Shown piece by piece: positions 2,355-23,400 of a DNA stretch of 64,000 bases. The position numbers and the translations under genes are program-made. Under the pieces are notes generated by a model. That model saw only the letters and a program-made list of their open reading frames with translations, was not told the DNA's origin and did not search any database. Source of the stretch: a virus (taxonomy: Duplodnaviria; Caudoviricetes); IMG/VR virus record IMGVR_UViG_2881096153_000005, positions 1 through 64,000 of that record; one strand, written 5' to 3'. Numbering within the stretch: position 1 is the first letter of the stretch; each line of letters starts with the position of its first letter.

Positions 2355-2367
2355 CCGCAATTTTTTT

Positions 2368-2898: not shown

Positions 2899-2937
2899 GA
2901 ATTTTTCCATGTATCGTATTTTATTTTCCAAAAGTGT

Positions 2938-3423: not shown

Positions 3424-4189
3424 TTGCAGCCGGAATCAGATTTTAAAAGCCTTGCCAATAGTGCTGACGATCAAAGCCAATGAAGATCCTGCGGCTACCT
3501 TGCCCCTGATGGATCATTTGGCAGAAATTCTAAGCGGCATTTCAAAAGTGAGCTCGCTCCCCCTATTGGCCCGGCAGGATTTGTATTCTAGTCTTGCCTG
3601 GTCTATTTCCGAGCCGCTCAAAGAAAAGCCTTTTGACTATCTAAGGGTCAGTCATCGCCGGTACTATTTGCCTGAGCCCACCTATGCCGACAGCTCGACG
3701 ATTGAAGTGGCCATGGCCAATATTCAGTATCTGGCTTTCAGTAATCCGAAGGCTCCAAATCCACAAGCACTCTTTGAATTTTTGGGCACCATCCTTCGCC
3801 CAAGACGAATTGGTTGGCGGATCCGGCAATGGCTTCCCTCCTACAACGGCGAAAATCGGGAGGTCTTCAACTCTTTGCGAGCGCAGCAGCGCGCCAAACG
3901 GTTCAGGAAGCTAAATTTTCAGCAGATCATACCGGTACTGCTGTACTGGCAGGAAATGAACAATGCCTTTATCCGGCGCTATGAAAAGCTTTACGAATCG
4001 GATGAAAGCACCCGGCAGCTCTTTAAAAATGGCGAAGGCTGGCTTTCAACCATTGAAGATGTGGCCGAAAACCGCGTTCATGGCAATTTTGACGCCGTTT
4101 GTGAAACCAATATTCATACCATTTGGCTCTTTTTATCCCACAAGAAGGTAAAAATGGATGAAGCAAACCGCCTGATGCAGGCAGAATAG
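3392..4189 (+). CDS. Phage tail-region protein X (paralogue of 57146-57964)
   Basis: Shares W..CS, LA...Y.AFS, L.T..RP, GW......A..G.HGNFD.VC with 57146-57964. Confidence 0.6.
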   Translation: MRKILPKCWSDCSRNQILKALPIVLTIKANEDPAATLPLMDHLAEILSGISKVSSLPLLARQDLYSSLAWSISEPLKEKPFDYLRVSHRRYYLPEPTYADSSTIEVAMANIQYLAFSNPKAPNPQALFEFLGTILRPRRIGWRIRQWLPSYNGENREVFNSLRAQQRAKRFRKLNFQQIIPVLLYWQEMNNAFIRRYEKLYESDESTRQLFKNGEGWLSTIEDVAENRVHGNFDAVCETNIHTIWLFLSHKKVKMDEANRLMQAE

Positions 4190-4202
4190 GTTTAACTTTT
4201 CT

Positions 4203-4237
4203 GTCCTACTCCAACTCCTTTCTACTCCCTACGTTTG
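4203..4237 (+). promoter_or_regulatory. Putative phage late promoter (GTCC...TACGTTTG)
   Basis: GTCC 27 nt before a consensus Bacteroidota -7 box; same spacing recurs elsewhere in the window. Confidence 0.55.
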
Positions 4238-4261
4238 TAGCCTACCAAATCCCATGGAGGT

Positions 4262-4729
4262 ATGCTACGCAGTGCCGATTTTGAATCCTATATCAATTAC
4301 TTCAAGCAGTTTGCCCAGCTCAGCCCGGATATAGAGTACTTTCTATATGGAGGTGTAGAGCTTGGTATACAGTACGCCACCGGAGCGGACGGCTTCAACT
4401 ACCCGTTTATGTGGCTCGAACAACCCGAAATCATTTCGGATGACAACGACGCCAGTCAGCTGACCGAGATTTACTACGGCGGAGTAAGTATCATCTTTGC
4501 TCCACCGCTTGACCGGCCACAGGAGCAAATTCAGGCTGAAATTGATTCCATCCGGATCATTTACAAACTCCAAAAACAAATGCGGGCCGACAACCGGTCC
4601 AAAGGCTTTGTGCACTGCAACCTTGCCAAAATGCGCAAATCGGCCGTAGATCGTGCCTGGGCAAATAACCACCATGGGTGGAGACTTGAATTTGAACTTC
4701 ACCTGAACGCAAATGGATTACTTAGCTAG
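4262..4729 (+). CDS. Phage tail-region protein Y (probable counterpart of 57957-58487; possible terminator-type protein)
   Basis: Similar size and position; PEIISDDNDASQL...GW..E.EL versus TPLTDNDTGL...GW..DID. Confidence 0.45.
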   Translation: MLRSADFESYINYFKQFAQLSPDIEYFLYGGVELGIQYATGADGFNYPFMWLEQPEIISDDNDASQLTEIYYGGVSIIFAPPLDRPQEQIQAEIDSIRIIYKLQKQMRADNRSKGFVHCNLAKMRKSAVDRAWANNHHGWRLEFELHLNANGLLS

Positions 4730-6719: not shown

Positions 6720-6721
6720 GC

Positions 6722-7252
6722 ATGATTTCAGATGATTTAAATCAGGAGATCATTGACCTGGCCACGGAAATCACCCGTGATGCCGTAGGCTATTTTGAAA
6801 AAGCTATTGAGCGGAGTGGGCTATTGCTTACCTCCGAGCTCAGAAATAGCTTTGAGTATCAAATCAACCATCAGGCCGGGCAGCTGGCCGTCTCCGGAGA
6901 CATTTACTTCAAAGGCTATGGCCGGATGAAGGATATGCGCTCACTTACGTACCTCAATATGCCTTCCATAGATGTACTAGAAGAGTATGTTGATAAGGTA
7001 GGGCTGGACAAATTTACCTTTGTGAACCGGTTTGGGCAACGAAAGATCCCGACCAAACAATCAGACGCCCGGCATATTGCCTGGGCCATTGCCATGCATA
7101 AGAAACGAGTTGGCACCGTCCGGAGAAAGCGCAGCTCAAACTGGTACAACCGTACGAAAGTAGATTTTCTGAATGTGATGCGGCGGCGGATGATGGAACG
7201 GACGCAGGTATTGATAACAAAGGCGTTGAAAGAGCAGACTGAAGGCAAGTAA
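6722..7252 (+). CDS. Phage tail-completion-like protein W (paralogue of 58487-59110)
   Basis: Both have GL.LT.EL..S and GYGR.KDMR. Confidence 0.6.
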   Translation: MISDDLNQEIIDLATEITRDAVGYFEKAIERSGLLLTSELRNSFEYQINHQAGQLAVSGDIYFKGYGRMKDMRSLTYLNMPSIDVLEEYVDKVGLDKFTFVNRFGQRKIPTKQSDARHIAWAIAMHKKRVGTVRRKRSSNWYNRTKVDFLNVMRRRMMERTQVLITKALKEQTEGK

Positions 7253-7561
7253 AAGTGGGGAGTATCTTCCTTAGACTGATTCTAAATTTCTACAATAGTA
7301 TTTGTATACGAGTGGGTTGTGCTATCTTGTCACCGTTATAAAATCAAATTAAACGTTTTTTACCTTAGGGGGTATTGGCGATAGAAAATGCAATGGTATA
7401 ATGGAACAGAACCAAATGCTTACTCAAATACCATTATATTACAATTCGGGAGTATAACCATAATTAAGTTTTAAATATATAGATTTTGGGGATAATTGTG
7501 GGAGGACAGTATAGAGTCAAAAAGGGTAATTCGGAAAAACCAAACAAGCTAATTAAAAAAT

Positions 7562-9322
7562 ATGATTTTAGCATCTGTAAAACTTCAAGGATTTAGAAAC
7601 TTCAAAAATAGTGAAATAAATCTTGCTAAAAAATCTTTAATCATTGGCGCTAACGATGTTGGGAAAACCAATTTACTTTGGGCAATTAGACTTTTATTAG
7701 ACAGAAGTTTATCTGACTACGACATTGAACCCAAAGACTCGGATTTTTATGCTTTTGAAGAAACAAATACGTTTACGATTCAACTACATTTTGACGATGT
7801 AATTGAAGATTGTGTTGTTTCAAAACTAAAAGGGAAGATAGGAGACGACAATAAACTTATTTTAGTATATAAAGCATTTCGTGATAAAATCACTAAAGTC
7901 AAAACATTTCAATTTTTTGCTGGACCTAGTAATGACTTAATTGAAGAAATTGAAGATAGATACTATAGAAAAGTATTAAATGTGAAGTATATTAGTAGCA
8001 GAAGAGATCTACACAATTACATAAACAGAGAAAAAGCATATTTATTTCAAATTGCTAAAGAAAATAGGGAGGAAGACGAAGTTACTCAAGACGAAAAACT
8101 ATATTCTGAAATTCAATTACAACTAAAAAATGTTGATGAAAATATTCCCAAACTAAATTTCATATCTTCCGCAACAAATACAATCAATGAAGAACTTTCC
8201 AAATTGTCACTACATCATACTAAGCAAAAAATTGTATTTGATGCAAGTTCATCTAATGTAGATAAATTTATAAATAGTGTTTCGATAGCTTCTAAAAGTA
8301 AGGATCAAAGTGTTTTAATTGGCGGTGATGGACGATTAAATCAAATTTATCTTGCGCTATGGTCTTCAAGAAATGAACTGACAAAAGATAGTCTAAAAGA
8401 AATTACAATCTTTTGTATTGAAGAACCCGAAGCACATTTACATCCACATCAGCAACGTAAACTTGCAGAATATTTAAACTCATCAATAAAAGGACAAGTA
8501 TTATTGACATCTCATTCGCCTCAAATTGCATCAGAATTTAGTCCTAATTCAATAGTCCGATTATTCAATAAAAAAGGGGAAACTAAAGCTGCTTCAAATG
8601 GTTGTTCAGAAATAATTGGTAACACTTTTAAAGATTTTGGGTATAGGCTAAGTATAATTCCTGCTGAAGCATTTTTTTCTGATGTAGTTTTTCTTGTAGA
8701 AGGCGTTTCCGAAGAATTATTCTATAAAACACTATCAATTCAGCTAAGTATAGACTTGGATAGACTAAACATAAGTATTTTAATGGTTGACGGAATTGGA
8801 TTTTCAACATTTATTAAAATCCTAAATAGTTTAGACATTGATTGGGTATTAAGAACTGATAATGACATTTTTAAAATCCCCAAGAAAGAAGAGTATCGTT
8901 TTGCTGGTATCCAGCGATGTATTAGTATTTGTAAAAATTATTTTCAGAAGGACGAAACAACAGAAAAATTACTAAAAGAAAATGAAAGCCATCTAAAAGG
9001 ATTTAATAATCCTAATGCTTCTGAAATTAATATTAAATCAGCTTCAATAATTATTAAAGACCTTGAACGATATAAAATTTATTTATCTAATAGGGATTTA
9101 GAAAATGACTTATTCAACACTAAAATTAAAGAAGATTTAAAAAATTATTTTAGCGATATTGGTGAACATGAAATCATTAATGAAATGCAAAAAAGAAAAG
9201 CCTCGTTTATGTTTAAATTTTTACGAAACAATAAAGAAAGTCTAAAAAAATTATCCGAAGATCCAATTGCCAAGCCTTTGCTAAAATGTAAAGAGATTAT
9301 TGAAGAAATGCAGAAAGAATGA
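7562..9322 (+). CDS. gajA: Gabija GajA-like OLD-family ATP-dependent nuclease
   Basis: Walker A GANDVGKT, IEEPEAHLHPH, TOPRIM VEGVSE...TDND; coupled to a UvrD gene. Confidence 0.85.
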   Translation: MILASVKLQGFRNFKNSEINLAKKSLIIGANDVGKTNLLWAIRLLLDRSLSDYDIEPKDSDFYAFEETNTFTIQLHFDDVIEDCVVSKLKGKIGDDNKLILVYKAFRDKITKVKTFQFFAGPSNDLIEEIEDRYYRKVLNVKYISSRRDLHNYINREKAYLFQIAKENREEDEVTQDEKLYSEIQLQLKNVDENIPKLNFISSATNTINEELSKLSLHHTKQKIVFDASSSNVDKFINSVSIASKSKDQSVLIGGDGRLNQIYLALWSSRNELTKDSLKEITIFCIEEPEAHLHPHQQRKLAEYLNSSIKGQVLLTSHSPQIASEFSPNSIVRLFNKKGETKAASNGCSEIIGNTFKDFGYRLSIIPAEAFFSDVVFLVEGVSEELFYKTLSIQLSIDLDRLNISILMVDGIGFSTFIKILNSLDIDWVLRTDNDIFKIPKKEEYRFAGIQRCISICKNYFQKDETTEKLLKENESHLKGFNNPNASEINIKSASIIIKDLERYKIYLSNRDLENDLFNTKIKEDLKNYFSDIGEHEIINEMQKRKASFMFKFLRNNKESLKKLSEDPIAKPLLKCKEIIEEMQKE

Positions 9323-10965
9323 AACCAACTGAACAACAAAAACTAATTCTTGATTACGATGGCAATTCGGTTATTATAGCTGCACCTGGTAGCGGTAAAA
9401 CATTTGTCATTTCCGAAAAAATAAAATGCCATTTAAGAAGTCTGCCTGAACATCAAGGTGTAATAGCAATTTCATATACAAACAAAGCAAGTATAGAACT
9501 AAAAAATAGAAGTCTTTCCAATGGCGATAACCCAAAAAGTTCTTTTTTTGGAACTATTGACAAATTCAATCTTTCAGAAATAATTATCCCATTTGCAAAA
9601 TATCTTTTTGGTGTTCCAAGTACTGATGTGAAAATAACTAAAATAACATCTTTATCTCATGACGAAATTGAAAATTTTAATTGGTTTAATAGAAAACTAA
9701 CTTTAGAAAAAATTTCCGACTCAAATATTGATTTGTTAAAGTCATATTTTCTAAAAGGGCTAATATTCATTGAATCCATTGGTGTTTTAGCAAACTACGT
9801 ATATACTAATTCTGTCGCCTGTCGAAATTACATAAGAGCAAGATATAAATTCATTTATATTGATGAGTACCAAGATTCAGGATTTGAGCAGCATCAAATT
9901 TTTCAAAAAATTAAACTTTTAAATATTAAAGCATTTGCAGTTGGCGACTTAAATCAATCTATCTATGCTTTTTCAGGGAAAGATGCAAAATACTTAGAAG
10001 AATTGACTAAGGATGAAACTTTTAAATATTTTAAATTGGACAAAAATCATCGCTGTCACCCTTCAATAATAAATTATTCAAACTATCTACTCAATCCAAA
10101 AACCGAATTAATTTCTACAGAAAATAATTTAATATTTTTTTCCAGAGTTAAGGGCAATGAGCAAGCGATTGCACAATGGTTAGACCAAAATATAAAAATT
10201 ACCCAGGAAGCCTTCAAAATTGAAAAACGCAACCAAATTGCAATATTAACACGGACAACTAGAACAGGTGAAATTATAAACAACGAGCTTAAAGAACCTC
10301 ATAAACTATCAGTCAGTAATGAATTAGACACGAACCTTAATGTGTGGTCATCAATATTCTCAAATTTACTAAGTTTTGGGTATGATAAAAACTATAAATT
10401 TAATGATGTTATTGAATTATTTACATCATATGACAATTTCAGCAATAGTGATTTACAAAAGCTTAAAAGTTCAAAAGAAAAAATTGTAAATTTTTTTTCA
10501 TCAAATACATTAAATAAAGAAGAACTAATTATCGAGTTCATAAATGTTGCTAAAATTATTGCCCCTAATTCAAAAGGACAAGAATCAATAGATCTATTGA
10601 AATCTGTATTAGAAAATGCTATAGAACTAAAATCATACGAACCAGCAAATGAAAACGAAGTCAATATATTGACTTTACATAAATCAAAAGGACTAGAATA
10701 TGATTTTGTTTTTCATTTAGACCTATATGAATGGGTGTTTCCAAATAAACAACCTGGAAATAATAACGATTTCAATAATCCTATTTATGGTGATTGGACA
10801 CAAGATCTGAACTTGCATTATGTTGGAATTACAAGAGCCAGAAAAGGATGTTGGCTAGTTTCAAGTACGCAAAGGACAAATAGTGAAGGTATATCGAAGA
10901 AAGGAAATGATTCTGAATTTATTTGGAAAGATAAAATTGAAGATTTGAGATTCCCTATTACATAG
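9319..10965 (+). CDS. gajB: Gabija GajB-like UvrD helicase
   Basis: AAPGSGKT, IDEYQD, VGDLNQSIY, TLHKSKGLEYD, YVGITRAR; 4-bp overlap with gajA. Confidence 0.85.
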   Translation: MKPTEQQKLILDYDGNSVIIAAPGSGKTFVISEKIKCHLRSLPEHQGVIAISYTNKASIELKNRSLSNGDNPKSSFFGTIDKFNLSEIIIPFAKYLFGVPSTDVKITKITSLSHDEIENFNWFNRKLTLEKISDSNIDLLKSYFLKGLIFIESIGVLANYVYTNSVACRNYIRARYKFIYIDEYQDSGFEQHQIFQKIKLLNIKAFAVGDLNQSIYAFSGKDAKYLEELTKDETFKYFKLDKNHRCHPSIINYSNYLLNPKTELISTENNLIFFSRVKGNEQAIAQWLDQNIKITQEAFKIEKRNQIAILTRTTRTGEIINNELKEPHKLSVSNELDTNLNVWSSIFSNLLSFGYDKNYKFNDVIELFTSYDNFSNSDLQKLKSSKEKIVNFFSSNTLNKEELIIEFINVAKIIAPNSKGQESIDLLKSVLENAIELKSYEPANENEVNILTLHKSKGLEYDFVFHLDLYEWVFPNKQPGNNNDFNNPIYGDWTQDLNLHYVGITRARKGCWLVSSTQRTNSEGISKKGNDSEFIWKDKIEDLRFPIT

Positions 10966-11382
10966 CTCTTTAACTAACTGAAAAAACCTAAATTTGGAAG
11001 AGTCAAATGAGAAAATTATTGTATCTAAGTACTCTTTTCAATTTAAATTGACGACCTATATTGCCAATCATCAGGCTAAAGTCAGGTCAAAATGCTCTTT
11101 CAGGAAACTAAGCAACAAAGCCGATTTGAAAGATAAAGAATAAAGAAGCTAAAACAGAAAAAGGACGACTAAAAAAACAACTAACCGCAAATAGCGGTTT
11201 TGAAAAAGCTTAGGTTTTGTGCTTCAAAGTAGGTAAAGTGCTTTATTGAAATTCTATAATTCTAATAAAGTTTAATTCTGAAAACCAACGTCTTTGCAAA
11301 GCAAAAAAAATATTTGGATTGATAACCGACCCATTTGAACAGTAGTACTAACTCGAAAAATTTATCAAGATATAAATAGATC

Positions 11383-12309
11383 GTGGATATATCAGCAATA
11401 GATAAAAAAATTTCTGAACTAACTACCAAGTTGAATAGTAAAGTTCCGAAAATGAAAAAGGATAAAGTAAAAATGGGTTCAATACCTGTTCACCTGAAGA
11501 AATATTATGCCGAAGAAATTGCGAAACTTGAAAAACAAAAAACTTACTTACAAAGCCTAGAAGAAGTTCATACAACAATCGATTGGAGCAATGTCAAATT
11601 TGAAAACTTTCAGATAAGAGTAATAATTAACGGGCAGTATTCAGAACCGTTTCAACTTTTGGAATCTCGTAGTTCCTATGAGTTTTTAAAACCTTATTTT
11701 TTAAAATCTGACTTGAATCCATTATCAGTTTCAATGCTGGGAAATAAAATTTCTTCAATAAGTGATTTATCTGAACTGAATTGTGTATTAAACATACTTT
11801 CAATTCAAGACGAAATCAATAACTATTTCAACGACTTCGAATCTACTACCATTGAAAAAATCTTATTAAAGCTGAAAAACATTTTGAACCAACATCTTTT
11901 TTACTTTTTCAAAATAAAGGAACGAAGTTTATACCTTAATTTTTTATGCGAGATTCAAAGCAATGATTTCAAAATTATCCCAACGACAGAAATTTTATTG
12001 AGTAACGATAAAGTTATTTCGCACGAGGAAACTTTTCTTTTCACAGTAAAGAATCCAAAGTACGTTTATATCATTTGGGAAAGCACTCTTATAAACAGAG
12101 CAACTTACATTTTTCAAACAAGCGACAACTCCTACACAGAAGATGTGCAAAGATTATTTGACTTCATTGCATCAGGAGAAAATAGTAAGAGGAGAAAACT
12201 TAGATATTCAATTAAAACAACGGAAAATCCTTTTAAAAGTATTGGAATAATTCAACATTCAAACATTGACGGATGGAAAATGAAAATAAAAAGTTTGGTG
12301 CAGAAATGA
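11383..12309 (+). CDS. Hypothetical 308-aa protein in the defence island
   Basis: Long AT-rich ORF with no recognised motif. Confidence 0.7.
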   Translation: MDISAIDKKISELTTKLNSKVPKMKKDKVKMGSIPVHLKKYYAEEIAKLEKQKTYLQSLEEVHTTIDWSNVKFENFQIRVIINGQYSEPFQLLESRSSYEFLKPYFLKSDLNPLSVSMLGNKISSISDLSELNCVLNILSIQDEINNYFNDFESTTIEKILLKLKNILNQHLFYFFKIKERSLYLNFLCEIQSNDFKIIPTTEILLSNDKVISHEETFLFTVKNPKYVYIIWESTLINRATYIFQTSDNSYTEDVQRLFDFIASGENSKRRKLRYSIKTTENPFKSIGIIQHSNIDGWKMKIKSLVQK

Positions 12310-12607
12310 TACCATGCGATCCTTCATCAATCAACTAAAAGATCGTTGTGCTTACTTGTTTGGCTGCTTCGGAAAGACAGCAGCACATTCACAAAACAAT
12401 ACTGATGCAAAAGCGTGGGTTTTGTGTTAAAGCTCAGTTCTTCAATTGAACATTAGTACCAAAATCCCTCCAAAGCAAAATCCAGACTCTCAGCCGAAAC
12501 AGCCAGTCTTCCCCCTCACCCATCATAAATTTCTCCTTGGAAGCTGAAAAATTGACCGTGGTAAACTATCTTGTGACCCCTACAAGATTTTTAACTAATT
12601 CCACGAT

Positions 12608-14371
12608 ATGCCTACCCTTCATTGGATCGGAAAAGATAAGGTGGTTAACCATCATCTGGATGTTCCCTACCGAGTACTGAATCACGAATATGGTTTTTCT
12701 GGCGATTCCGGTAAGACAAGAACGCCTACCCAGAGCGGTAACAAGATTATCCACGGCGACAATCTTGAAGCCCTCAAAGCCCTCTTGCCAGAGTACGAAG
12801 GCAAAGTCAATTGCATCTACATTGACCCACCATATAACACCGGAAACGAGGGATGGGTCTACAATGATAACGTCAATGACCCCAAAATAAAGAAATGGCT
12901 GGCCACTGTTGTCGGCAAGGAAGGCGAAGATTTGACAAGGCATGATAAGTGGCTTTGCATGATGTATCCTAGATTGATGCTTCTAAGTAAATTACTGTCT
13001 CAAGATGGTAGAATGGTCATTAGTATCGGATATCAAGAGGTTTTTAACCTAATCCAAATTTGTAATGAGATTTTTGCTAAAAAGCAAATAGTCTGCATAA
13101 CAATTCAGACTTCTGGTGGAAAGCCTGCTGGTGGGTTTAATTTTCAACATGAGTATTTAATTTTCATTGTACCATATGACTTTAAACCAAATCCATTGCT
13201 ATTTACAGGTGGCAAGTTAAGGACACCTTTTGAAGGATTGACATTAGCCACTTTTGATAAGACTCAAAGGCCTAATCAAACTTATCCTATATTTATCAAT
13301 ACTGATAACGGCACTCTTGCTGGAATCGGAGAATCTCTTCATGAAAGAATAAAAACAGGAGAGTATATCGACAAACCAGAAAATTTTCCATTTGATTACA
13401 ATGAGGCGCCAGAAGGTACAGTCGCGATTTGGCCAACCACCTCAAAAGGGAAAGACTGTGTATGGCGTTTAAGCCCAGCAAGATTGCTTAAAGATTGGGA
13501 AAAAGGCTATATCAAAATAAGTAAAAATAGATCTAAGAAAAGTCAGAATAAATATAGTATTCAATATTTACCTGATGGGGTAATAAAAAAAATTGAATCT
13601 GGAAAACTTGAAGTAAATGGAAAAGAACCTGCAGCTCCCACTTTAACATTTGGTAGTAATCTTACTGTGGGAAGTGAAATACCAACTCTATGGCAGGAAA
13701 AAGATTTCTATACTGTAAAAGGGACTACACAGTTAAGTCAAATTTTCAGTAAGAAGCTATTTAATTATCCAAAGCCACTAGAACTAATAACTGAAATTTT
13801 GAGATCAATCAGTTCTCTGGATGATATTATCTTGGATTCCTTTGCTGGTTCTGGCACAACAGGTAATGCCACACTGAAATTAAATTTGGAAGATTCTGGT
13901 ACGCGAAACTTTATACTAATTGAAATGGAAGAATATGCCGAAACTACAACTGCTGAGCGGGTCAAGCGGGTCATTAATGGCTATGGAGAAGGCGAAAAAG
14001 CCGTGGAAGGTACCGGAGGGATCTTTGACTACTACACGCTTGGGGAGCCGCTATTTGATGAATACGATAATCTAAATGAAAGTGTTGGCACGGAACGGAT
14101 CCGGCAGTATGTGTGGTATTCTGAAACCCGTACAGCCTATGAATCTCAGGCAGCGGGCGAATACCTACTGGGAAAAAAGGATGAATGCGCCTACTATTTT
14201 TTCTATGAACCCGATGCTATGACTGAGCTGAATTTTGATTTTCTGGCTCTCGTCAAAGTCAAGGCAGATCAGTATGTAATTTATGCTGATAACTGCCTGC
14301 TTTCAGAGGAATTCATGTTAGCCAAAAATATAATTTTTAAGAAAATTCCACGCGATATAACCCGCTTCTAA
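12608..14371 (+). CDS. mod: Type III R-M methyltransferase (Mod)
   Basis: IYIDPPYNTG and LDSFAGSGTT motifs in beta order; adjacent to res. Confidence 0.9.
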   Translation: MPTLHWIGKDKVVNHHLDVPYRVLNHEYGFSGDSGKTRTPTQSGNKIIHGDNLEALKALLPEYEGKVNCIYIDPPYNTGNEGWVYNDNVNDPKIKKWLATVVGKEGEDLTRHDKWLCMMYPRLMLLSKLLSQDGRMVISIGYQEVFNLIQICNEIFAKKQIVCITIQTSGGKPAGGFNFQHEYLIFIVPYDFKPNPLLFTGGKLRTPFEGLTLATFDKTQRPNQTYPIFINTDNGTLAGIGESLHERIKTGEYIDKPENFPFDYNEAPEGTVAIWPTTSKGKDCVWRLSPARLLKDWEKGYIKISKNRSKKSQNKYSIQYLPDGVIKKIESGKLEVNGKEPAAPTLTFGSNLTVGSEIPTLWQEKDFYTVKGTTQLSQIFSKKLFNYPKPLELITEILRSISSLDDIILDSFAGSGTTGNATLKLNLEDSGTRNFILIEMEEYAETTTAERVKRVINGYGEGEKAVEGTGGIFDYYTLGEPLFDEYDNLNESVGTERIRQYVWYSETRTAYESQAAGEYLLGKKDECAYYFFYEPDAMTELNFDFLALVKVKADQYVIYADNCLLSEEFMLAKNIIFKKIPRDITRF

Positions 14372-14376
14372 ACCAT

Positions 14377-17022
14377 ATGGAGTTAAAAAGCTACCAACAG
14401 GATGTCCTGAACGACCTTCGCACCTATTTTGATTACCTTACTACCATGCAGGATCCGGCGAAAGCCTTTGATACGTATTGGGAGGAGCGGTTGGGTCCAT
14501 ACAATCCGATTACCCGCAAAGGCATGCGGCCCTACTTGAAAACGATTCCAAAAGCCGTGCATTTGTGCGTGAAAGTTCCTACTGCTGGCGGGAAAACGTT
14601 TATTGCCTGCAATGCGCTAAAAGTGATTTTTGATCGAATGCCGAAGGAGGATCCAAAGGTTGTGGTATGGCTTGTACCCTGGAGCAACCTGCTGGATCAA
14701 ACTGTTAATAGTCTAAGTGACCCTAACCATCCCTACCGGCAGAAGATCAATACACTATTCAACCATCGGGTAGACGTTTACGATAAGAATAAACTATTGC
14801 AAGGGGCAAGTTTTAACCCCGGGGTTGTTAGAGAACAGCTCAGTATCATTGTTATGAGCTTTGCCAGCCTGCGGGCTCGAAACAAAGATGATCGGAAAGT
14901 GTATCAGGAAAATGGTCAATTGGCTTCTTTTGTCGATCAATTGACTGATAAGGAGCACGTTTTAGAAAATACGGACGAGTCTGCCTTGATCAATATAATT
15001 CGCAGTTTTAATCCCGTAGTAGTAGTTGACGAAAGCCATAACGCCGAAAGTGATCTAAGCGTGGAAATGCTTAAAGCTCTGAATCCAAGCTATATTCTTG
15101 ATCTTACAGCGACTCCCAAAGAAAATTCAAATATTGTAAGTATGGTGTCGGCCATGAAGCTCAAAAAAGAGCACATGGTCAAGTTGCCAATTATTGCCTA
15201 CAACCATAGGGAGAAAACGGAAGTGATTGACAGTGCCCTGCACTTACGGCAGAGTCTGGAACAAATGGCAATTGCCGAACAGAAAGCAGGCGGTAAGTAT
15301 ATCAGGCCTATCGTTCTATTCCAGGCACAGCCCAAAACTGGTGAGGAAAATACGACTTTTGAGAAGTTAAAAGCACTATTGATTAAAGCAAAAATTCCGG
15401 AAGAACAGATCAAGATCAAAACTGCCACGATCAATGAACTGAAAGGCGTTGACCTGCTTTCCCCTGATTGCCAGGTTCGCTACATCATTACAGTGAATGC
15501 TTTGAAAGAAGGCTGGGATTGTCCCTTTGCCTATATTTTAGCTTCTTTGGCTGATCGATCATCGGCAGTAGATGTGGAACAAATTGTTGGCCGGGTTCTT
15601 CGCCAACCCTATGTTACTGCCCATAAGCAGACACTCCTCAATATGTCGTATGTATTGACTGCCTCCCTGAAATTTGAAAACACTTTACAAAATATCATTC
15701 AGGGTTTGCAGGCCGCAGGGTTTAGTGAGAAAGATTATAGGGCCGAGAACAAAGTGACGCCGGAGGATATAGCTCAGGCAAAGGAAAAAGAAATTCAAAA
15801 GGAGTTATTTGCAGAAAGTACAGAAACCACTGCTGATGATATTGACCCTGAAAAAATAACGTTTGATCCAGAGGAAATTAGTGAACAGCCCGCACCTGGG
15901 GTAAGTACTACAATAGAAGAAATAATTGGCCTTGCTCATGAGGAATCGGAAAAGACGGAGGAGCAAATGAAGAATTTACGCGCAAATCCAACCGATCCTA
16001 TATTCACTGAAATGGCTGACAAAGTAGTATTTTACCCTATGCGAGCAGATGTTGAAGCTCACGCTAAAGCCGTAATTCTCCCCAAATTTTACCTGAAAAT
16101 TCCTTCGGGCGGCTTGCTGGAGGGTATGAATGAGAACATAGAAGTGAATAAAAATGCGCTTCTGGAAGGATTCCGCTTGGTGAAGAAAGATACAGAGATC
16201 AATTTTGAAGCTTTGGCGACGGAAGTGTATAAAATTGATATTGAATCAGGAGCCACAACCGAAAGTTATCGACCTACTGCATCGAAAATCAAAAAAGGTG
16301 ATGCGCGAAACTTGTTGATGGAGCATATCCTATCAAGGCCTAAAAGTAATCAGGTAAAAGACATTGCCCATATGCTCCGGAAGCACCTGGGAGATTTGAG
16401 CCCGGTATCAGAACAGGATGTGACCAAATATCTTACGAAAGTTTTGGAGGATATGTCAACCGAAGAGTTTACTGAAATTCTTAATCGTGAATTACTCTTT
16501 GGCCGGATACTTAAGCAGAAAATCCAGGGCTTTATGGATGAGTATGCAGAAAAGCAATTTGGTGATTATCTAGAAACAGGTAAAATTTTCATGAAACCAG
16601 TTTGGAAATTTCCAGAGCAAATTGTCCCAGGAATGGTAGGGCCCAGTATCGTGCGGTCGCTGTATGAGAAGGAAGGGAGCGTCAATAACTTCGAGCACAA
16701 AATCATACTTGAAGTGGCCAGCATGGATAATGTAGCTTTTTGGCACCGGAACCTCGGCCGTGGAAAAGGCTTCGCAATCAACGGATTTAAATCCAACCAT
16801 TACCCTGACTTTATTATACTGACACAATCGGGAAACCTGATTGTACTGGAAACCAAAGGGGATGACCGCGACAACTCGGACAGTCAGGCCAAGGTACGGC
16901 TCGGGAACACCTGGGCTATTCGTGCCGGTCAAAAGTTCAAATACTACATGGTGTTTGAAAAAAACAGCATCGACGGAGCCTACACCTGGGATAGGTTTAA
17001 GGAGCTGATGGAGGGATTGTGA
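14377..17022 (+). CDS. res: Type III R-M restriction helicase/endonuclease (Res)
   Basis: VPTAGGKT, VDESH, ALKEGWDCP, C-terminal YPDFII...LETKG nuclease motif. Confidence 0.9.
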   Translation: MELKSYQQDVLNDLRTYFDYLTTMQDPAKAFDTYWEERLGPYNPITRKGMRPYLKTIPKAVHLCVKVPTAGGKTFIACNALKVIFDRMPKEDPKVVVWLVPWSNLLDQTVNSLSDPNHPYRQKINTLFNHRVDVYDKNKLLQGASFNPGVVREQLSIIVMSFASLRARNKDDRKVYQENGQLASFVDQLTDKEHVLENTDESALINIIRSFNPVVVVDESHNAESDLSVEMLKALNPSYILDLTATPKENSNIVSMVSAMKLKKEHMVKLPIIAYNHREKTEVIDSALHLRQSLEQMAIAEQKAGGKYIRPIVLFQAQPKTGEENTTFEKLKALLIKAKIPEEQIKIKTATINELKGVDLLSPDCQVRYIITVNALKEGWDCPFAYILASLADRSSAVDVEQIVGRVLRQPYVTAHKQTLLNMSYVLTASLKFENTLQNIIQGLQAAGFSEKDYRAENKVTPEDIAQAKEKEIQKELFAESTETTADDIDPEKITFDPEEISEQPAPGVSTTIEEIIGLAHEESEKTEEQMKNLRANPTDPIFTEMADKVVFYPMRADVEAHAKAVILPKFYLKIPSGGLLEGMNENIEVNKNALLEGFRLVKKDTEINFEALATEVYKIDIESGATTESYRPTASKIKKGDARNLLMEHILSRPKSNQVKDIAHMLRKHLGDLSPVSEQDVTKYLTKVLEDMSTEEFTEILNRELLFGRILKQKIQGFMDEYAEKQFGDYLETGKIFMKPVWKFPEQIVPGMVGPSIVRSLYEKEGSVNNFEHKIILEVASMDNVAFWHRNLGRGKGFAINGFKSNHYPDFIILTQSGNLIVLETKGDDRDNSDSQAKVRLGNTWAIRAGQKFKYYMVFEKNSIDGAYTWDRFKELMEGL

Positions 17023-17051
17023 GAAAAGCAATAATGTAAATCCATTCACAT

Positions 17052-18158
17052 ATGAACAAAGTTACTTATTTAATCGGAGCGGGTGCCAGTGCCAATGCTT
17101 TGCCGGTGGTTAATGGCATTCCTGAAAAAATGGCAGAAATGCGAAATAAATTTGACGGAATTAGTTTTAGCAATAGAGAGTTTTTTTCATTCGATACTCT
17201 GAAAGAATGTAATAAACAAGAATGTAAAAATATATTTCTTGCTGATTTAGATAAAATTAGGCTTGCCATTGAAGATCATGCAAGTGCTGACACCTACGCA
17301 AAAAAGCTTTTTTTACAGAATGATACGGAAGGACTTGTGCGTTTAAAATTGATGCTATCCATTTTGTTTAGTATAGCTCAATCAAGACATGCTGGTGTTG
17401 ATAAAAGGTATGATGCCTTTTTTGCTTCTATACTTAATCGCCTAGATGAATTTCCGACTAACTTACGAATACTTTCATGGAATTATGACCAACAGTTTGA
17501 AATGGGGTATGCACGTTTTAGCAAAAGAGGTTTAGAAGATGCACATCAAACTTTACGTGTTCAATTTAAACATCTTGGAAAAAGTCTTCATAATAACTAT
17601 AATGCTGACAAGTTTTCAATTATTAAGCTAAATGGCTCAACCGGCCTTGTTGGTGATAATAGAAATTATCGGTCGCTACTAAGTGATTACAGAGTTTCCA
17701 AAGAACAGAATAATGAAATTGATCCTAATGAGGGGTTCAGATATAATAGTAACCAAGCTGAATACTTATTATGTAAATATCATGAAATGCTATATCCCTT
17801 CCGAAAGAATCAAAATCCTGATATGGAACCTCTAATGTCTTTTGCCTGGGAAGATGAATTTTTTGATTCAAACCATATAAAGACAAAGGCTGTAGAATCA
17901 TGTATAAAAGCAAATACACTTGTGGTAATTGGCTATTCTTTCCCTTACTTCAATCGAGAAACTGATAAGATGTTGTTCGACAATATGAGGAGTTTGAAGA
18001 AGATCTATATTCAAGATAAATATCCACAAGATGTAAAAGATCGAATTTTGACACTTATGCCTACTGAGAAATCTCCGGAAAATCAAAAAATCTCTCCACT
18101 TCCAGAATTTGTTTTCATTACAAACTTAGATCAATTTGTGATTCCACACGAGTTGTGA
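17052..18158 (+). CDS. SIR2-like domain protein
   Basis: YLIGAGASA, SWNYD, IKLNGS, VIGYSFP motifs. Confidence 0.7.
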   Translation: MNKVTYLIGAGASANALPVVNGIPEKMAEMRNKFDGISFSNREFFSFDTLKECNKQECKNIFLADLDKIRLAIEDHASADTYAKKLFLQNDTEGLVRLKLMLSILFSIAQSRHAGVDKRYDAFFASILNRLDEFPTNLRILSWNYDQQFEMGYARFSKRGLEDAHQTLRVQFKHLGKSLHNNYNADKFSIIKLNGSTGLVGDNRNYRSLLSDYRVSKEQNNEIDPNEGFRYNSNQAEYLLCKYHEMLYPFRKNQNPDMEPLMSFAWEDEFFDSNHIKTKAVESCIKANTLVVIGYSFPYFNRETDKMLFDNMRSLKKIYIQDKYPQDVKDRILTLMPTEKSPENQKISPLPEFVFITNLDQFVIPHEL

Positions 18159-18224
18159 TAATAATCCTAACGGATGTTTTAAATCATCTTAATTTTCTGA
18201 CTGTACCCTCAAAAAACCACTAAA

Positions 18225-18722
18225 ATGAAAAAAATCCTAACTATCCTACTTGCATTCTTTATTTTCTCCTGCCAATCGAAAAAGGAAGAATCTCCTGAAA
18301 TGGTTTTGCTGCGAGAACAAAACGAACTACTCAAAAAGCAACTTGAAGAAGCTGAAAAATCTAAAACTGAGATTAAACAGAAAGTTGTAGAACAAGCCAA
18401 AATCCAGAAAGTAAAAAAGGTCGTTATTGACGATGATAGAATAAAGCAAGACTTACTAGGGCGGAGATTCGAGTATTTACAACCTGGCTTAGTTAGGATT
18501 AGGAAAACCTGGGAATTTGCCTCCCTATCTGAATTCATTACGTTCAGTGTAGAGAATGAAATAACAAAGGAAGATTATATTGAAAAAACTATCTCCATGA
18601 CTTTGGAAGATAACCGAAGTGGTCAAAAGCATTATTGCAAAATGCTTGTTAGCTATTCAAAATCAGGTAATGAATGGATTATGGTCAGAAATGATGTATT
18701 GAAGTTTAATAACATTGATTGA
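18225..18722 (+). CDS. Lipoprotein of unknown function
   Basis: Lipobox MKKILTILLAFFIFSC followed by a coiled coil. Confidence 0.7.
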   Translation: MKKILTILLAFFIFSCQSKKEESPEMVLLREQNELLKKQLEEAEKSKTEIKQKVVEQAKIQKVKKVVIDDDRIKQDLLGRRFEYLQPGLVRIRKTWEFASLSEFITFSVENEITKEDYIEKTISMTLEDNRSGQKHYCKMLVSYSKSGNEWIMVRNDVLKFNNID

Positions 18723-18749
18723 TTTTACGGAATAGAAATTAATAATTTT

Positions 18750-19022
18750 ATGCAAAAAAATAATGAATCTTCCGATAAGCTAGAATACTGGATAAAATTA
18801 TTATTTTGGATGAGTTGTAATACCATACTTGGCTGGATGGCTAGCAAAGTTAGTTGGGTTTTAGGTTTCACTTGGTTAGATGAAGATGGATTTATTTTTG
18901 AATTCCTACATGGAACTATTATTCTAGGATTACTTTATCCGATTGTCTTAACAGTAGGACCCATAATGGATGCAGCCGTTAAACTCGAAAAAATTTACTT
19001 TACTGAGGATAAGAATTTATAA
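18750..19022 (+). CDS. Small two-TM membrane protein
   Basis: Two hydrophobic segments. Confidence 0.55.
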   Translation: MQKNNESSDKLEYWIKLLFWMSCNTILGWMASKVSWVLGFTWLDEDGFIFEFLHGTIILGLLYPIVLTVGPIMDAAVKLEKIYFTEDKNL

Positions 19023-19056
19023 TCCTTGGCCTTTGTCTCACAGGCCTATTTTGTAT

Positions 19057-19191
19057 GGTCCAAAAACCCATACCTTTCTGAACCCTGCCCACCGGCAGGG
19101 TTCTTTGCTTTTGTGGCCTGCCAAAGTAGGGTTCAAAAAGTAGGTTCAGTTCAAAAACATGCGCTATCTTTATGGACCTAACTTTATGACC
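19057..19191 (+). promoter_or_regulatory. res-like site for the resolvase
   Basis: GGTCCAAAAA-N8-TTTCTGAACC inverted pair (19057-19084) plus further GGTTCAAAAA, GTTCAAAAA and TTTATGGACC half-sites just upstream of the gene. Confidence 0.6.
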
Positions 19192-19210
19192 GCTTCTACA
19201 GACCTACTCT

Positions 19211-19774
19211 ATGAATCAAATATTCGGATACGCTCGTGTGTCGACAGCTGACCAAATTACAGACACCCAAATTGATGCTTTACAGAAATTCGGCTGTGAT
19301 CGCATTTTTAAAGAGAAAATTTCCGGACTTTCCGTTCAACGTCCAGCCCTGGACGAAATGCTATCTCTCCTGCGGGAAGGTGATACTGTCGTGGTTTCCC
19401 GCTTTAACCGATTAGGCCGAAGCCGGGATCACTTGATTAGTCTGATTGGTGAGTTCTCTAAACGCGGCATCATCTTCAAAGCCCTGGACCTGGGAATTGA
19501 TTCTTCTACACCTTCGGGAAAACTGGTCATCGGCATCTTTGCCGCCTTAGCTGAATATGATCGGGAGATGATTCTTGAAAAGACCCGCGCCGGCCAAATA
19601 CTGGCAAAGGCAAAAGGAAAGCACATTGGCCGGCCATCCGGAGCAAATCAGGAGAATTATACAAAAGTGAAGAAAGCTATAGATAAGGGTTTATCTGTGA
19701 TCGAAATTGTACAACTGACCGGCATCAGCATTTCCAGCGTAAAGAGGTACCGAAAGGAAATTTCCAGATCGTAA
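19211..19774 (+). CDS. Serine recombinase (resolvase/invertase family)
   Basis: FGYARVST..Q, RFNRLGRS, GRPS, C-terminal HTH. Confidence 0.92.
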   Translation: MNQIFGYARVSTADQITDTQIDALQKFGCDRIFKEKISGLSVQRPALDEMLSLLREGDTVVVSRFNRLGRSRDHLISLIGEFSKRGIIFKALDLGIDSSTPSGKLVIGIFAALAEYDREMILEKTRAGQILAKAKGKHIGRPSGANQENYTKVKKAIDKGLSVIEIVQLTGISISSVKRYRKEISRS

Positions 19775-19872
19775 GTTTTTGAATTTTACTTTACAAAGAA
19801 GCTGCCCAGAGCTGTACCGTACTTTGCACGCGCTTCTTCCTAATCTTATGGGTGAAAGAATAAGGTATGGGA

Positions 19873-20301
19873 TTACCTAAAAAGCAAGGTAAAATCATAC
19901 ATTGTTTTAGATCCAACTCCAACTGGACAACATACCCCTCCTACCTTTATTCCGTTTTCGTAATAAATAAAATCTTTATACTTTGTAGGAAAGTCCAAGT
20001 TATGAGAAAATGAGATATCAACAGATACTGCATCATAGCCCTTTGGTACATCTACTACAAATTCATAATTACCTTCTTCATTAGTATATGTCTTTCCCAG
20101 TGGAATGCCCGACTTATTCAATCCAGCGGAATTCAAGTGGATCAACACGCTATCGACCGGCTGTTGCGCCTCGTCGATCACCCGACCCGTGACGGTGGTG
20201 ACGCGCTTGCCGGGACCACCAAGTTGGCAATCAGTCAAGCATAATATAATCAGTAAAATATAGAAAGTAAGCAAAAAGCCCTGGGTCTGTTTCAATTTCA
20301 T
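19873..20301 (-). CDS. Putative exported/lipoprotein with a small beta-sandwich
   Basis: Hydrophobic N-terminus ending LCLTDC; TVTGRVID...TNEEGNYEF. Confidence 0.6.
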   Translation of the reverse strand: MKLKQTQGFLLTFYILLIILCLTDCQLGGPGKRVTTVTGRVIDEAQQPVDSVLIHLNSAGLNKSGIPLGKTYTNEEGNYEFVVDVPKGYDAVSVDISFSHNLDFPTKYKDFIYYENGIKVGGVCCPVGVGSKTMYDFTLLFR

Positions 20302-20413
20302 ACTGGGTGGATTTTAGAAACTTTGTAAATGTAAAAAATTGGTAACTTATAAAGGGTAACCTTATCAAAAAATTTGGCGCCAGATTTTTCTGATTCCTGA
20401 GCTCAGTTTTTCT

Positions 20414-20448
20414 GTCCTTCCCTCCCCCGTTTCCTACATTGATATTCG
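20414..20448 (+). promoter_or_regulatory. Putative phage late promoter of tape-measure gene 1
   Basis: GTCC then GATATTCG 27 nt later; hairpin TCGTACACT/AGTGTACGA at 20446-20467. Confidence 0.55.
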
Positions 20449-20472
20449 TACACTACCTAGTGTACGATAGCC

Positions 20473-23400
20473 ATGAATTTAGAGGAAGTAGCCCGCCTGA
20501 GGCTCGAAATCCTGGGTGACGAAGCCCAAAAGACCGTTCAGAACCTGGAATCAGGCCTTAGAGATGTTAACTCCGAGCTCCGTCTTATGGAGCTCAATGG
20601 GGAGAAGGGCTCCGATGCCTGGAAAGAGCTCAAAAAGGTTCAGGCAGATGTAAAGGATGAAATAAAAGACCTCACCAAAGCCCTTGACATCAATGATGCC
20701 TCCTGGCGGGAGCTTTCCAGCCTTAGTAAACAGCTTGGGCGAGATCTTGCCAACCTGAAAATCGGCTCGGAAGAATGGGTCGATAAGCTTAAAGAGATCG
20801 CTCAGGTTGAAGACCGCATGAAAGACGTGCGGTCTGAAATGCGGAAGATCAAGGACGAAGGAGAAGATCAAAAAGGCTTCTGGGATACTTTCAAGGGCAC
20901 CTTTTTCGGAGCCTTTGCCGCAGACATGCTCATGCAGGCGGGTCAGGCTATCTGGGATTTTGGTAAAAAAGCCATTCAAACTGCCGCCGAATACTCCGAC
21001 TCTTTTGCGGATATTCAAAAAACTACCGGTCAAACCAACGCCGAAGTACGAGAGCTCAACGAACAACTTCAAGGCATCAATACCCGAACCGCTCAGCTCG
21101 ACCTTTTGAATATTGCTCAGGTAGGTGGTCAAATAGGCATTGCCAAAGAAGAAATGTTCGGCTTCGTCGATGCGATCGACAAAGCGGTGGTTGCCCTGGG
21201 CGATGAATTCAGCGGGGGCGCTGAGCAGGTAGCCAAAGAAATGGGTGTGCTGGCTAACCTGTTCAAAGAAACCAAAGATTTGGAAGCCGGTGAAGCCATT
21301 CTTCGGATCGGCTCCGCAGTCAACGAACTTGGCGCGGCTGGCCTGGCCACCGGTCCCTATCTATCAGATTTTACGGCTCGACTTGGGGCGTTGGGTGATT
21401 TGGCGCCCAAAGTTACCGAGTCGCTTGCCTTCGGATCCATCTTCGAGGAGCTGGGCTTAACCTCCGAAATCGCCGCGTCCGGATTAACCAAGGTGCTGAC
21501 TGTCGGAGCTACCGAATCGGAGAAATTTGCCCGGGGTATGAACCTGGCCAAAAGTGAGGTGGAGAACCTGATCAATACCAATCCGAATGAATTTATCCTA
21601 AAACTTGCCGAAAGCTTTGAGGGGCTATCGACTACCGAGGTAGCCGCTAAGATGAAAGATCTTGGGCTGAACTCTCAGGAAGCTATCAAAGTGATGGGCG
21701 TTTTGGCTGAAAACACGGATCTGGTCCGGGAAAAGCAGGAGCTTTCAAGCAAAGCCTTTCAGGAAGCTACCTCGCTGACTAACGAATTCAACATCAAGAA
21801 TGAAACATTTGCCGCGACCTTAGATAAGGCCGGGAAAGCGGTTGAAGAGCTTGAAGTTAGTCTGGGTCAGGTTCTCATCCCGATCGTCACGACACTAGTT
21901 ACCAGTTTCGTTGCCCTGTTAAAAGGAATTGGTGCCATTCCAGAATTTGTCCGCGAAAATAAGGAAATGTTTATCGCCTTGGGTGTCGCATTAGTAGGCC
22001 TCAATACGGCAAATATTGCGGCAACCGCTTCATCTCTCGCCCATGCAGCCGCAGAAAAAGGCAGATTGATCTGGACAGAAGCAGCGACCGTTGCTCAATG
22101 GGCGATGAACATCGCATTAAATGCAAACCCAATAGGAGCGGTAGTTGCTGCAATTTCTGTTCTGGTCGGTGGTTTCATTACGCTATATCAGAATTCAGAG
22201 ACGCTCCGGAACATTATTGACGGTGTATGGGCTGCGATGAAGGAAGGTGTCGAAATTATTCAGGATGTAGCTCAGGCCATTGGACGAGGGTTTGATCAAA
22301 TGCTTGAAAAACTTCCTTTTTTGACAGAAGGTTTGGAGTGGATTGGCGATGTTTCTGATACCATATTAACCGCTTTGGGCGACTCTCTTTCCTGGGTAGG
22401 TAGCAAGATTGGCCAGGTTATTGACTTTTTCGGCGGGCTATACAGTAAAATCTTTGAGGTAGGAAACTCGATTGGTGGAGCCTTGAGTCCAGCTTTTGAT
22501 TTCATTCTTAATGGGTTCGATTTTGTCAAAAAATCAATTACTGACTTCCTGAATTTCATACAAGGCGGAGTTGAAAAGGTATCGGGTTTTCTCAAATCAA
22601 TCACACCGGAAGGATTTACAGAAGCCGGTAAGCTATTTTCTGATGCAGGAAAACGCATTTCTAAATCATTTAATGATGCATTTGCCTCTGAACAGGAAGA
22701 AGGTCACAAGCAACAAAGCGCCCTGAATAAAAAGCAGCTCGACAAAAAGGTTGAAGATGAAAAAAAAGCGTCGGGTATCATCACCGAGAATGACAAACAA
22801 ACCCATCAAAAAGGACTTTCGGAAAAAGGAAATGCCAACAAAAAAGCCAATGACGAAAGGATAAAGGCCAATGAGGATGCCTTGAAAAGCATTGCCAAGC
22901 TGGAAGTAACGGCTATTGCTGATGATTTGAAAAGGAATATAGCCAATGAAAATGCAAAGTATGCCGAAGAGAAAAAGCGGATCGAGAAGTCAAAGGCGGA
23001 CGCCGTTCTGAAAGCCAAATGGCTGGAAGCGCTCGAAAAAGAGCATACCGCCAAAATTGAGAAAATCAATGGCGATTTTCGGACAAAGAAAGAAAAGGCT
23101 GATCAGCAAACGGCTCAGAAAATTGACGCCATGGAAGCTAAATATCAGGCCGATGATCTGAAAAGAAAGATTGCCTCCATTGAAGCTTCGGCCAAAAAAG
23201 ATCTGGAAGAAGCCCAAAAGCTGGTGAAGGATAAGGATCAGCTGGCCAAACTCGAAGTTGCCATCAATACAAAAAAGGAACAGGATATTGCCGCTACCCG
23301 CGACAAGTTCCGGAAGGAAACGGAAGTCAAAGAAAAAGCGGCCCGTGATCTTAAACTGAAAGAAGAAAAATCGCTTTTTGATTCGGAATTTAAAGCATTT

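Follow-up and report, generated by a model that had tools for sequence, protein, structure and literature searches.

Phage-borne hotspots have been productive for finding new anti-phage systems, and the cases described are mostly from Enterobacteria, Vibrio, and Bacillus. Do temperate phages of the Cytophagales (Bacteroidota) carry such a site between a gene of unassigned function, here called W, and the tape measure protein (TMP) gene? The locus that raises this question lies in a stretch of 64,000 nucleotides (the window; IMG/VR record IMGVR_UViG_2881096153_000005), which corresponds to bases 79 to 64078 of contig C42 of a Cytophagales genome and contains two related prophages. The original prediction, made from these letters alone, placed cargo rich in defense genes between W and the TMP gene in both prophages and proposed that this phage family has a hotspot of its own. 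Our results support a narrower form of this proposal. With a probability that we put at about 0.8, the spacer that follows W and precedes the TMP gene is a cargo hotspot in two related clades of temperate Cytophagales phages, at which cassettes would be inserted, replaced, and stacked, most likely via recombination in the flanks, and would protect the lysogen.

Cargo between W and the tape measure gene in one genome

Prophage 1 is represented by its right part only, from window position 1 to ∼28300, where it ends with a tyrosine integrase gene (26932 to 28242, minus strand), and most of prophage 2 is present, from ∼29600 to past 64000. The two share homologous pairs, namely, a DUF5977 protein, a 270/272-amino-acid (aa) protein (24% identity), W and its homologue W', and the tape measures. 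The DUF5977 gene, a conserved tail-region backbone gene that precedes W (4713 to 6719, plus strand; 668 aa; Pfam DUF5977, E = 2.8e-18), is 42% identical to its 661-aa counterpart in prophage 2 (55164 to 57149) and 94% identical to the copies on contigs C1 and C39.

W itself (6722 to 7252, plus strand; 176 aa), the left anchor of the slot, has homologues with 91 to 93% identity on C1, C39, and C2. The left anchor in prophage 2 had been taken to be a 176-aa gene at 57957 to 58487; this assignment fell, since the true W homologue is the next gene, W' (58487 to 59110, plus strand; 207 aa; 30% identity, E = 4e-27), of which contig C11 carries a copy with 75% identity. On the right, the slot is bounded by the TMP genes of prophage 1 (20473 to 24981, plus strand; phrog_25337 at 5.1e-88 and 15 further TMP PHROGs) and prophage 2 (62671 to 63999, plus strand, running off the window; phrog_1533 at 1.7e-35 and others). 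The true start of the latter is probably near 62800, where the alignment to the C11 copy begins at residue 44.

In prophage 1, an AT-rich block from ∼7340 to 19860 lies between the two anchors, and the fraction of guanine plus cytosine (GC) is 0.47 to 0.53 in window positions 1 to 7000 versus 0.275 to 0.44 in 7001 to 19000. The Gabija and Type III restriction-modification (R-M) systems originally read in this block were both confirmed by PADLOC and Pfam. The gene for GajA (7562 to 9322, plus strand; PADLOC, 6.7e-224; Pfam AAA_15 and an OLD-like TOPRIM), residues 1 to 582 of which align to positions 1 to 565 of the 567 in the profile, overlaps by 4 nucleotides (nt) the adjacent gene for GajB (9319 to 10965, plus strand; PADLOC, 2e-186 over the full length; Pfam UvrD helicase). 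The Type III Mod gene (12608 to 14371, plus strand; PADLOC MTase_III, 1.3e-159; Pfam N6_N4_Mtase) is followed after a 5-nt gap by Res (14377 to 17022, plus strand; PADLOC REase_III, 1.9e-77; Pfam ResIII). The GC fraction is patchy within the cargo, ∼0.28 for Gabija and ∼0.43 for the Type III system, which suggests several separate acquisitions.

The 368-aa gene that follows (17052 to 18158, plus strand) had been called SIR2-like, and the label survives in part. ESM Atlas places the protein with SIR2_2-bearing clusters (feature score of 0.97, 28 of 30 matches; structural TM score of 0.65) and PADLOC gives a weak match to Aga_SIR2 (6.9e-5), but there is no Pfam match at an E value of ≤0.01 and no PDB sequence match at an E value of ≤1. 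We regard the label as a fair lead to a candidate defense gene, short of demonstrated membership. The remaining cargo includes an orphan of 308 aa (11383 to 12309, plus strand) with no match in Pfam, PHROGs, PADLOC, or NCBIfam and no usable match in ESM Atlas, and two orphan open reading frames (ORFs) of 165 and 90 aa (18225 to 19022, plus strand) with no family match in Pfam, PADLOC, or PHROGs. At an E value of ≤1e-5, PADLOC matched 7 of the 13 cargo ORFs in the window versus 2 of the 49 backbone ORFs, and both backbone matches are generic (a helix-turn-helix repressor and an orphan-methylase-like gene).

The slot of prophage 2 likewise holds an unrelated cargo before the tape measure gene, as the original prediction had said, but the cargo is more than the methyltransferase and HNH genes then recognized: judged by its gene content, it is a complete predicted Type II R-M system (59213 to 62741, plus strand). 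Two EcoRI-type adenine methylases (59213 to 60352 and 60466 to 61581, both on the plus strand), with 76% mutual identity, match PADLOC MTase_II (6e-87 and 3e-88) and Pfam EcoRI_methylase (2e-121 and 7e-128), and the gene after them (61578 to 62741, plus strand) combines GmrSD_N with an HNH nuclease and matches PADLOC REase_II over its full length (1.1e-83). Homology to the C11 prophage stops at 59106 and restarts at 62754.

A search of the host genome contigs by tblastn and blastn found four more copies, those on C1, C39, and a remnant divided between two contigs (C2|C12) being of the prophage 1 type (type 1) and that on C11 of the prophage 2 type (type 2). The type-1 backbones of C1 and C39 have 89 to 94% nucleotide identity to the window, and on C39, the presence of replication and protease genes along with capsid-like, terminase, and portal-like ones shows that type 1 is a full prophage. 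Slots are filled in all six copies, with 1.6 to 14.8 kb of DNA, and no two cargoes are the same. Each slot contains at least one known defense family, and four contain complete multi-gene systems. The position is thus fixed and its contents vary.

One could object that repeat prophages were misjoined during assembly and that the cargo does not truly lie between W and the TMP gene. Contigs C1 and C42 both begin at offset 79 in near-identical prophage sequence, indicating that the assembly broke at repeated prophages, so that two type-1 prophages have their left halves on other contigs. However, W, cargo, and TMP gene are on a single contig in C42, C1, C39, and C11, with flanks that are 6 to 10% different between copies, and the same layout is present in independent IMG/VR and metagenome contigs. 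We consider an artifact of this kind highly improbable.

The C1 cargo comprises a KASIII-like gene, ORFs of 197 and 73 aa, an AbiP/putAbiC-like gene, a Schlafen/AlbA_2 gene, a DUF2806 gene, ORFs of 288 and 125 aa, a recombinase gene, and two lipoprotein-like genes. The KASIII (FabH-like) gene and the 197-aa and 73-aa ORFs (C1, L009:913-2688) form the first cassette after W, an odd neighbor for Abi-like genes, and this cluster is a possible new system. In C39, a 240-aa ORF, AbiTii (4e-36), PDC-S06 (7e-148), and a recombinase gene are followed by a LytS/LytTR two-component system, a DUF2147 gene, a TolC/HlyD/FtsX/ABC efflux set resembling MacAB/TolC, a DUF3800 gene, a second, distant recombinase gene, SDR and HxlR genes, and a lipoprotein-like gene. 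This phage slot therefore holds ∼10 kb of non-defense cargo bracketed by two different serine recombinases (L010:2678-10788); two further PADLOC matches, one to the ABC ATPase and one to the FtsX permease, are in our reading generic to transporters. The C11 cargo is a single 533-aa AAA_21/AAA_15 ATPase, for which the best PADLOC match is AriAB (4e-29).

The remaining copy joins C2:180885-185402 to C12:1-6025 (L012 and L013), with HamA split by the contig break. Here, a W pseudogene with one TAG is followed by a 201-aa ORF, a DUF262/NsnA-like gene, a PIN gene, HamA (5e-112), HamB (3e-234), a scar of a Type III R-M system, a 125-aa ORF, a frameshifted recombinase gene, and a lipoprotein-like gene, and at its end the tape measure gene is cut down to its first 85 codons, after which ordinary chromosomal genes begin. 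This decayed prophage looks like a domesticated defense island and shows that an island can outlive its phage.

Filled and empty slots among relatives

W homologues were obtained from 24 of 400 other sampled genomes of the order, from one Runella metagenome-assembled genome (MAG; its locus came from a contig scan queried with a single W protein), from 42 IMG/VR loci, and from 21 metagenome loci. One of the resulting 91 loci (L026) had no W by tblastn, and the remainder formed 77 clusters at 95% W identity, each counted as one row. Two of these (L043 and L073) were excluded as copies of the C39 and C11 loci, which they equal in identities, gap, and ORF lengths; both carry one IMG genome identifier. 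Among the remaining 75 clusters, 69 were informative, and in 6 the contig ends too early to tell. The W and tape measure genes were adjacent (≤130 nt) in 40 of the 75, separated by a small gap of 300 to 800 nt in 10 (small ORFs, none of ≥50 aa in L028, and no PADLOC match), separated by a filled slot in 15 (≥800 nt or no TMP gene within at least 800 nt), and rearranged with other tail genes in between in 4.

Filled slots are concentrated in the two clades to which our prophages belong, in which 8 of 10 informative outside loci are filled. The clade around W, which is well supported, has four filled loci and one empty one, and the W' clade has four filled, one empty, and one uninformative. A tree of W needs 9 changes to explain which slots are filled, versus a mean of 15.5 after shuffling, with none of 500 shuffles as low; given that kin share states, this measures clustering and not independent events. 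An empty site appears to be the ancestral condition, and the hotspot a property of particular clades.

PADLOC matched 15 of the 89 gap ORFs of these relatives. The cargo of L042, the Runella MAG locus, has a Beta_protein/PD-Lambda-2_C-like match and a "cll" match. That of L086 includes a set of type IV cas genes (5552 to 8948; Csf1-like, 3e-9; Cas11, 1.5e-18; Csf2, 4e-74; Csf3, 2.6e-49) together with a PAPS-reductase-domain gene, which we take to be type IV-B. A Cas12f/TnpB-like gene is found in three near-identical metagenomic phages (L044:12267-13313, L045:11970-13073, and L086:9919-10692), each time with a 171- or 204-aa ORF just upstream; the protein, of ∼350 to 370 aa, has PADLOC matches to Cas12f/Cas12u3 of 1e-23 to 3e-52 (1e-44 to 3e-52 in L044 and L045) and no Pfam match. 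A 669-aa AriAB/OLD-like ATPase is encoded in L102, the L083 protein (474 aa) gives a weak PycC-like match, and that of L047 (402 aa) has a Peptidase_S74 tail-fiber chaperone domain. The cargoes of L097, L098, and L085 are without family assignment.

Several of these results weigh against a defense hotspot as we propose it. The wider family is mostly empty, with W directly upstream of the tape measure gene at a gap of ≤130 nt in 40 of the 69 informative outside loci, and the slot is not a family-wide property. Such adjacency in relatives had been named in advance as evidence against a hotspot, and taken literally, it is the usual state in the wider family; the proposal of a family with its own hotspot holds for the two sub-clades (6/6 own-genome and 8/10 outside loci filled). 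A PADLOC defense family was present in only 4 of the 15 filled outside loci, all four in the two clades and one of them with a weak match (L083, PycC-like, 7.6e-10), and the seven filled loci outside these clades had no PADLOC defense match. Clearly non-defense cargo occurs as well, in the form of the C39 efflux set and two-component system, the tail-fiber-like gene of L047, and an antirepressor-like gene of L091. The six own-genome loci belong to related elements that could have exchanged DNA and do not amount to six independent observations. Finally, the left border of the type-1 cargoes, described below, is sharp, which would be compatible with a site-specific process as well.

The same figures bear on whether the slot is specialized for defense at all. 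It might be a generic moron slot whose defense genes simply mirror their commonness on mobile DNA, and besides the cargo just listed, the KASIII, SDR/HxlR, bPH, and Cas12f/TnpB-like genes would fit this explanation, as would the lack of a PADLOC match in 11 of the 15 filled outside loci. Cargo without family assignment can be scored neither way, however, and a specific defense family is present in 6/6 own-genome loci, four of them with complete multi-gene systems. Within the two clades, defense families occur in four of the eight filled outside loci, compared to 2 generic matches in 49 backbone ORFs. We therefore find a slot without defense specialization unlikely. The predicted enrichment of the cargo for defense genes was borne out in the window (7/13 versus 2/49 ORFs) and across the genome and is weaker among the filled loci elsewhere (4/15).

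Borders, stacking scars, and the serine recombinase module

The type-1 left border is sharp. Homology to the other copies stops at window positions 7336 to 7356, 84 to 104 nt past the W stop codon, and alignments of the junctions and blastn between copies define a post-W stretch common to all type-1 copies (7253 to 7356, plus strand). Between this stretch and the first cargo gene lies a patchily conserved leader (7357 to 7561, plus strand), which is found in C42, C1, C2, and an internal W fragment of C1 and is missing in C39; it folds no better than shuffled sequences (z = +1.1), which does not point to a stable RNA fold, and Rfam had no match in window positions 6500 to 21000 at an E value of ≤0.1. 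The right border is variable, with homology restarting at 19862 against C39 and at 20241 against C1, as expected of homologous rather than site-specific exchange. The recombinase/lipoprotein stretch at this side has 74 to 75% nucleotide identity between copies, though the recombinases are 86 to 92% identical as proteins. No significant direct or inverted repeat connects the left and right borders.

Outside the genome, the backbones of L086, L044, L045, and L085 are 98% identical up to 41 to 55 nt past the W stop codon and then continue into diverging cargo. Compared with its empty sister locus L046, L047 has an insert in place of a 45-nt spacer, and this spacer carries a terminator-like hairpin directly after W.

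We propose that the spacer directly after the W stop codon is a permissive site inside the tail gene block. The junction of W and the tape measure gene appears to be a boundary between transcription units, because the empty-site phage has only ∼45 nt there, with a terminator-like hairpin after W, and because in type 1 the TMP gene is preceded by 170 nt of intergenic DNA and a lipoprotein gene divergent from it; DNA could presumably be inserted at such a boundary with no gene interrupted and no coupled pair separated. Defense cassettes and other accessory genes of foreign composition would be inserted at this slot, replaced, and stacked, with nested insertions, deletions, and trimming within the island. 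Their turnover would most likely take place when related phages that reside in or infect the same cell recombine in their conserved flanks, with the W 3' end and the following ∼40 to 100 nt as the left arm and the recombinase/lipoprotein/TMP 5' region as the right arm. From what these gene families are known to do, the prophage most likely expresses the cassettes, which would defend the lysogen, and with it the prophage, from other phages.

Scars of stacking and sub-modules shared between copies are seen within the islands. The C1 cargo contains two W 3' fragments, the larger of which (13983 to 14477) corresponds to the 3' 500 nt of W with 71% nucleotide identity and keeps downstream of it the leader found after intact W genes. 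The scar in C12 consists of the start of Mod and the end of Res, 90 to 92% identical to the Type III R-M system of the window, and C1 and C12 have in common the 125-aa gene (91% identity). Such scars fit a scenario in which cassettes arrived with the left arm of a diverged relative, followed by deletions and by exchange of sub-modules between co-resident prophages.

A different route would involve the serine recombinase module at the right edge of the type-1 cargo (19057 to 19774, plus strand), which is composed of a ∼150-nt conserved region with a terminator-like hairpin (19080 to 19103) and a resolvase/invertase gene (19211 to 19774; Resolvase, 9.4e-40). The protein has the architecture of the Resolvase/Hin type, with Resolvase at residues 4 to 138 and HTH_7 at residues 140 to 180, and matches the DNA invertase family phrog_125 (8e-62). 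We found the module conserved at six genomic sites, the four type-1 slots and one site each on contigs C15 and C18. The C15 site (L106, 19000 to 29000) belongs to a non-phage island in which a Type I HsdR is accompanied by a YgjP-like peptidase and an Avs-like NACHT protein of 2051 aa, and at C18 the module lies beside a bacteriocin-type C39-peptidase ABC exporter and HlyD. The modules have 65 to 83% nucleotide identity to each other (91% between C15 and C18) and are far more diverged than the backbones at 89 to 94%, which suggests that they came with the cargo and not with the phage. At the C15 island, the module stands at the end, and an Rhs/HNH toxin-like gene lies downstream.

The small serine recombinase could capture, excise, or swap cassettes at its conserved upstream site, both in the slot and in chromosomal islands. 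In 4/4 type-1 slots, the variable cargo has the module at its right edge (C39 has more cargo beyond it), it recurs beside the C15 island of Type I HsdR and an Avs-like STAND protein and beside the C18 exporter, and its divergence suggests travel with the cargo. The metagenomic locus L086 has a C-terminal resolvase fragment 33 nt past W, and DNA invertases are abundant in phage hotspots according to the portion of the iLund4u article available to us (10.1101/2024.10.15.618418). On the other hand, recombinases are absent from both type-2 slots and, the L086 fragment aside, from the gaps of the other outside relatives, and the right border differs from copy to copy. The conserved element upstream of the recombinase gene occurs only once in the 64-kb window when three mismatches are allowed, with no partner site at the left border, and the repeat and element scans of the window did not find at the slot the two sites on which a resolvase/res or Hin-type system works. 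A 13-nt inverted repeat around the module (19064 to 19076 and 19862 to 19874) was considered and rejected: its estimated frequency is about that expected by chance, and it is present in only C42 and C1 and missing in 4/6 copies. We consider turnover driven by this recombinase unlikely. Slightly more doubtful still is the idea of the recombinase and its upstream site as a portable docking module that would move defense cassettes between the slot and chromosomal islands, a kind of integron-like stacker for which the W 3' fragments would be capture scars. Recombination in the flanks remains our preferred explanation for the turnover of the cargo.

Relation to known hotspots and accessory observations

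The original prediction was modeled on the hotspots of P2/P4-type elements, and such fixed anti-phage hotspots are indeed established, namely, the old/tin locus between gpA and gpQ in P2-like phages and the psu-int locus in P4-like satellites, for which a recombinational exchange involving a second, homologous crossover has been proposed (Rousset et al. 2022, PMC9122126, in the excerpts available). As far as those excerpts allow a comparison, the site described here resembles them in having its position fixed by the conserved genes on either side in related temperate elements (W or W' and the TMP gene in 6/6 own-genome loci and in relatives) and in combining similar backbones with differing cargo rich in known or candidate anti-phage systems. 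Unlike them, it belongs to Cytophagales phages and lies in the tail block directly before the tape measure gene rather than beside cos, it is filled in two sub-clades only, it has a serine recombinase at the right edge of the cargo in one clade, and it is known from sequence alone.

Two further kinds of site are comparable, again within the parts of the sources at hand. The iLund4u study (10.1101/2024.10.15.618418) describes a P2 Z/fun hotspot between tail-related genes and a mixed-function Toutatisvirus hotspot, which likewise are hyper-variable islands flanked by tail genes with mixed cargo and recurring DNA invertases; the flanking genes and the hosts of our slot are different, and it is not named in those parts of the study. 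Morons, such as Tab of Pseudomonas phage JBD26, a late-operon gene (lambdoid and Mu-like phages; PMC10884400), are also extra genes between late structural genes, and moron genes protect the lysogen against other phages. In contrast to classical morons, which are one small gene, the islands here measure 1.6 to 14.8 kb and contain complete multi-gene systems and stacked cassettes. In the full-text literature covered, which does not extend to the supplementary hotspot tables of iLund4u that may list a related slot, we found no hotspot at this position or in Cytophagales phages. The site is a hotspot of a known kind, along with P2/P4, Z/fun, and morons, in a poorly studied phage group.

W and the tape measure gene accordingly provide a pair of anchor genes with which defense systems can be sought in poorly studied Cytophagales phages. 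The slots have so far yielded Gabija, Type II and Type III R-M, Hachiman, AbiTii, PDC-S06, AriAB-like ATPases, and type IV cas genes, alongside which stand the SIR2_2-like gene, the KASIII cluster, the DUF2806 gene, and orphans of 402 to 550 aa. A single genome whose six copies are each loaded differently, among them a decayed prophage of which only the island is left, is a compact natural example of the shuffling, stacking, and domestication of cargo.

The divergent lipoprotein-like gene before the TMP gene of prophage 1 (19873 to 20301, minus strand; 142 aa) has a weak CarboxypepD_reg match and a putative lipobox that we read from its sequence. It is only 52 to 66% identical between copies whose neighboring genes are 89 to 97% identical, and it is duplicated in C1. 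The gene is fast-evolving and may encode a surface or exclusion protein.

A block of genes for 593-aa, 155-aa, 242-aa, and DUF5675 proteins lies ahead of the 270-aa gene in type 1 (window positions 1 to 4189), and the same block follows the tape measure and a 493-aa gene in type 2 (C42:69498-72861), a difference in position that points to a rearrangement of the tail module between related phages. A scan for sigma-70 promoters returned 54 sites versus 44 expected, with a consensus that may not suit Bacteroidota.

W had no match in Pfam, PHROG, PADLOC, or NCBIfam, and at an E value of ≤0.01, Pfam and NCBIfam matched neither W nor W' nor P0007. The label HK97 gp10, considered for W, comes from the UniRef name of one Runella homologue. 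An AlphaFold model of W built from 13 sequences reached a predicted local distance difference test score (pLDDT) of only 66; Foldseek gave no match to it in the PDB at an E value of ≤0.001, and VIA-align returned only helical-hairpin matches (Z ≤ 8.4), within the noise stated for that tool. Two 60-aa open frames on C2 (162197 to 162388 and 168703 to 168894) are 48 to 50% identical to W residues 51 to 112, each lying no more than ∼700 nt from one of two duplicated DM13-domain genes in a region that is otherwise chromosomal.

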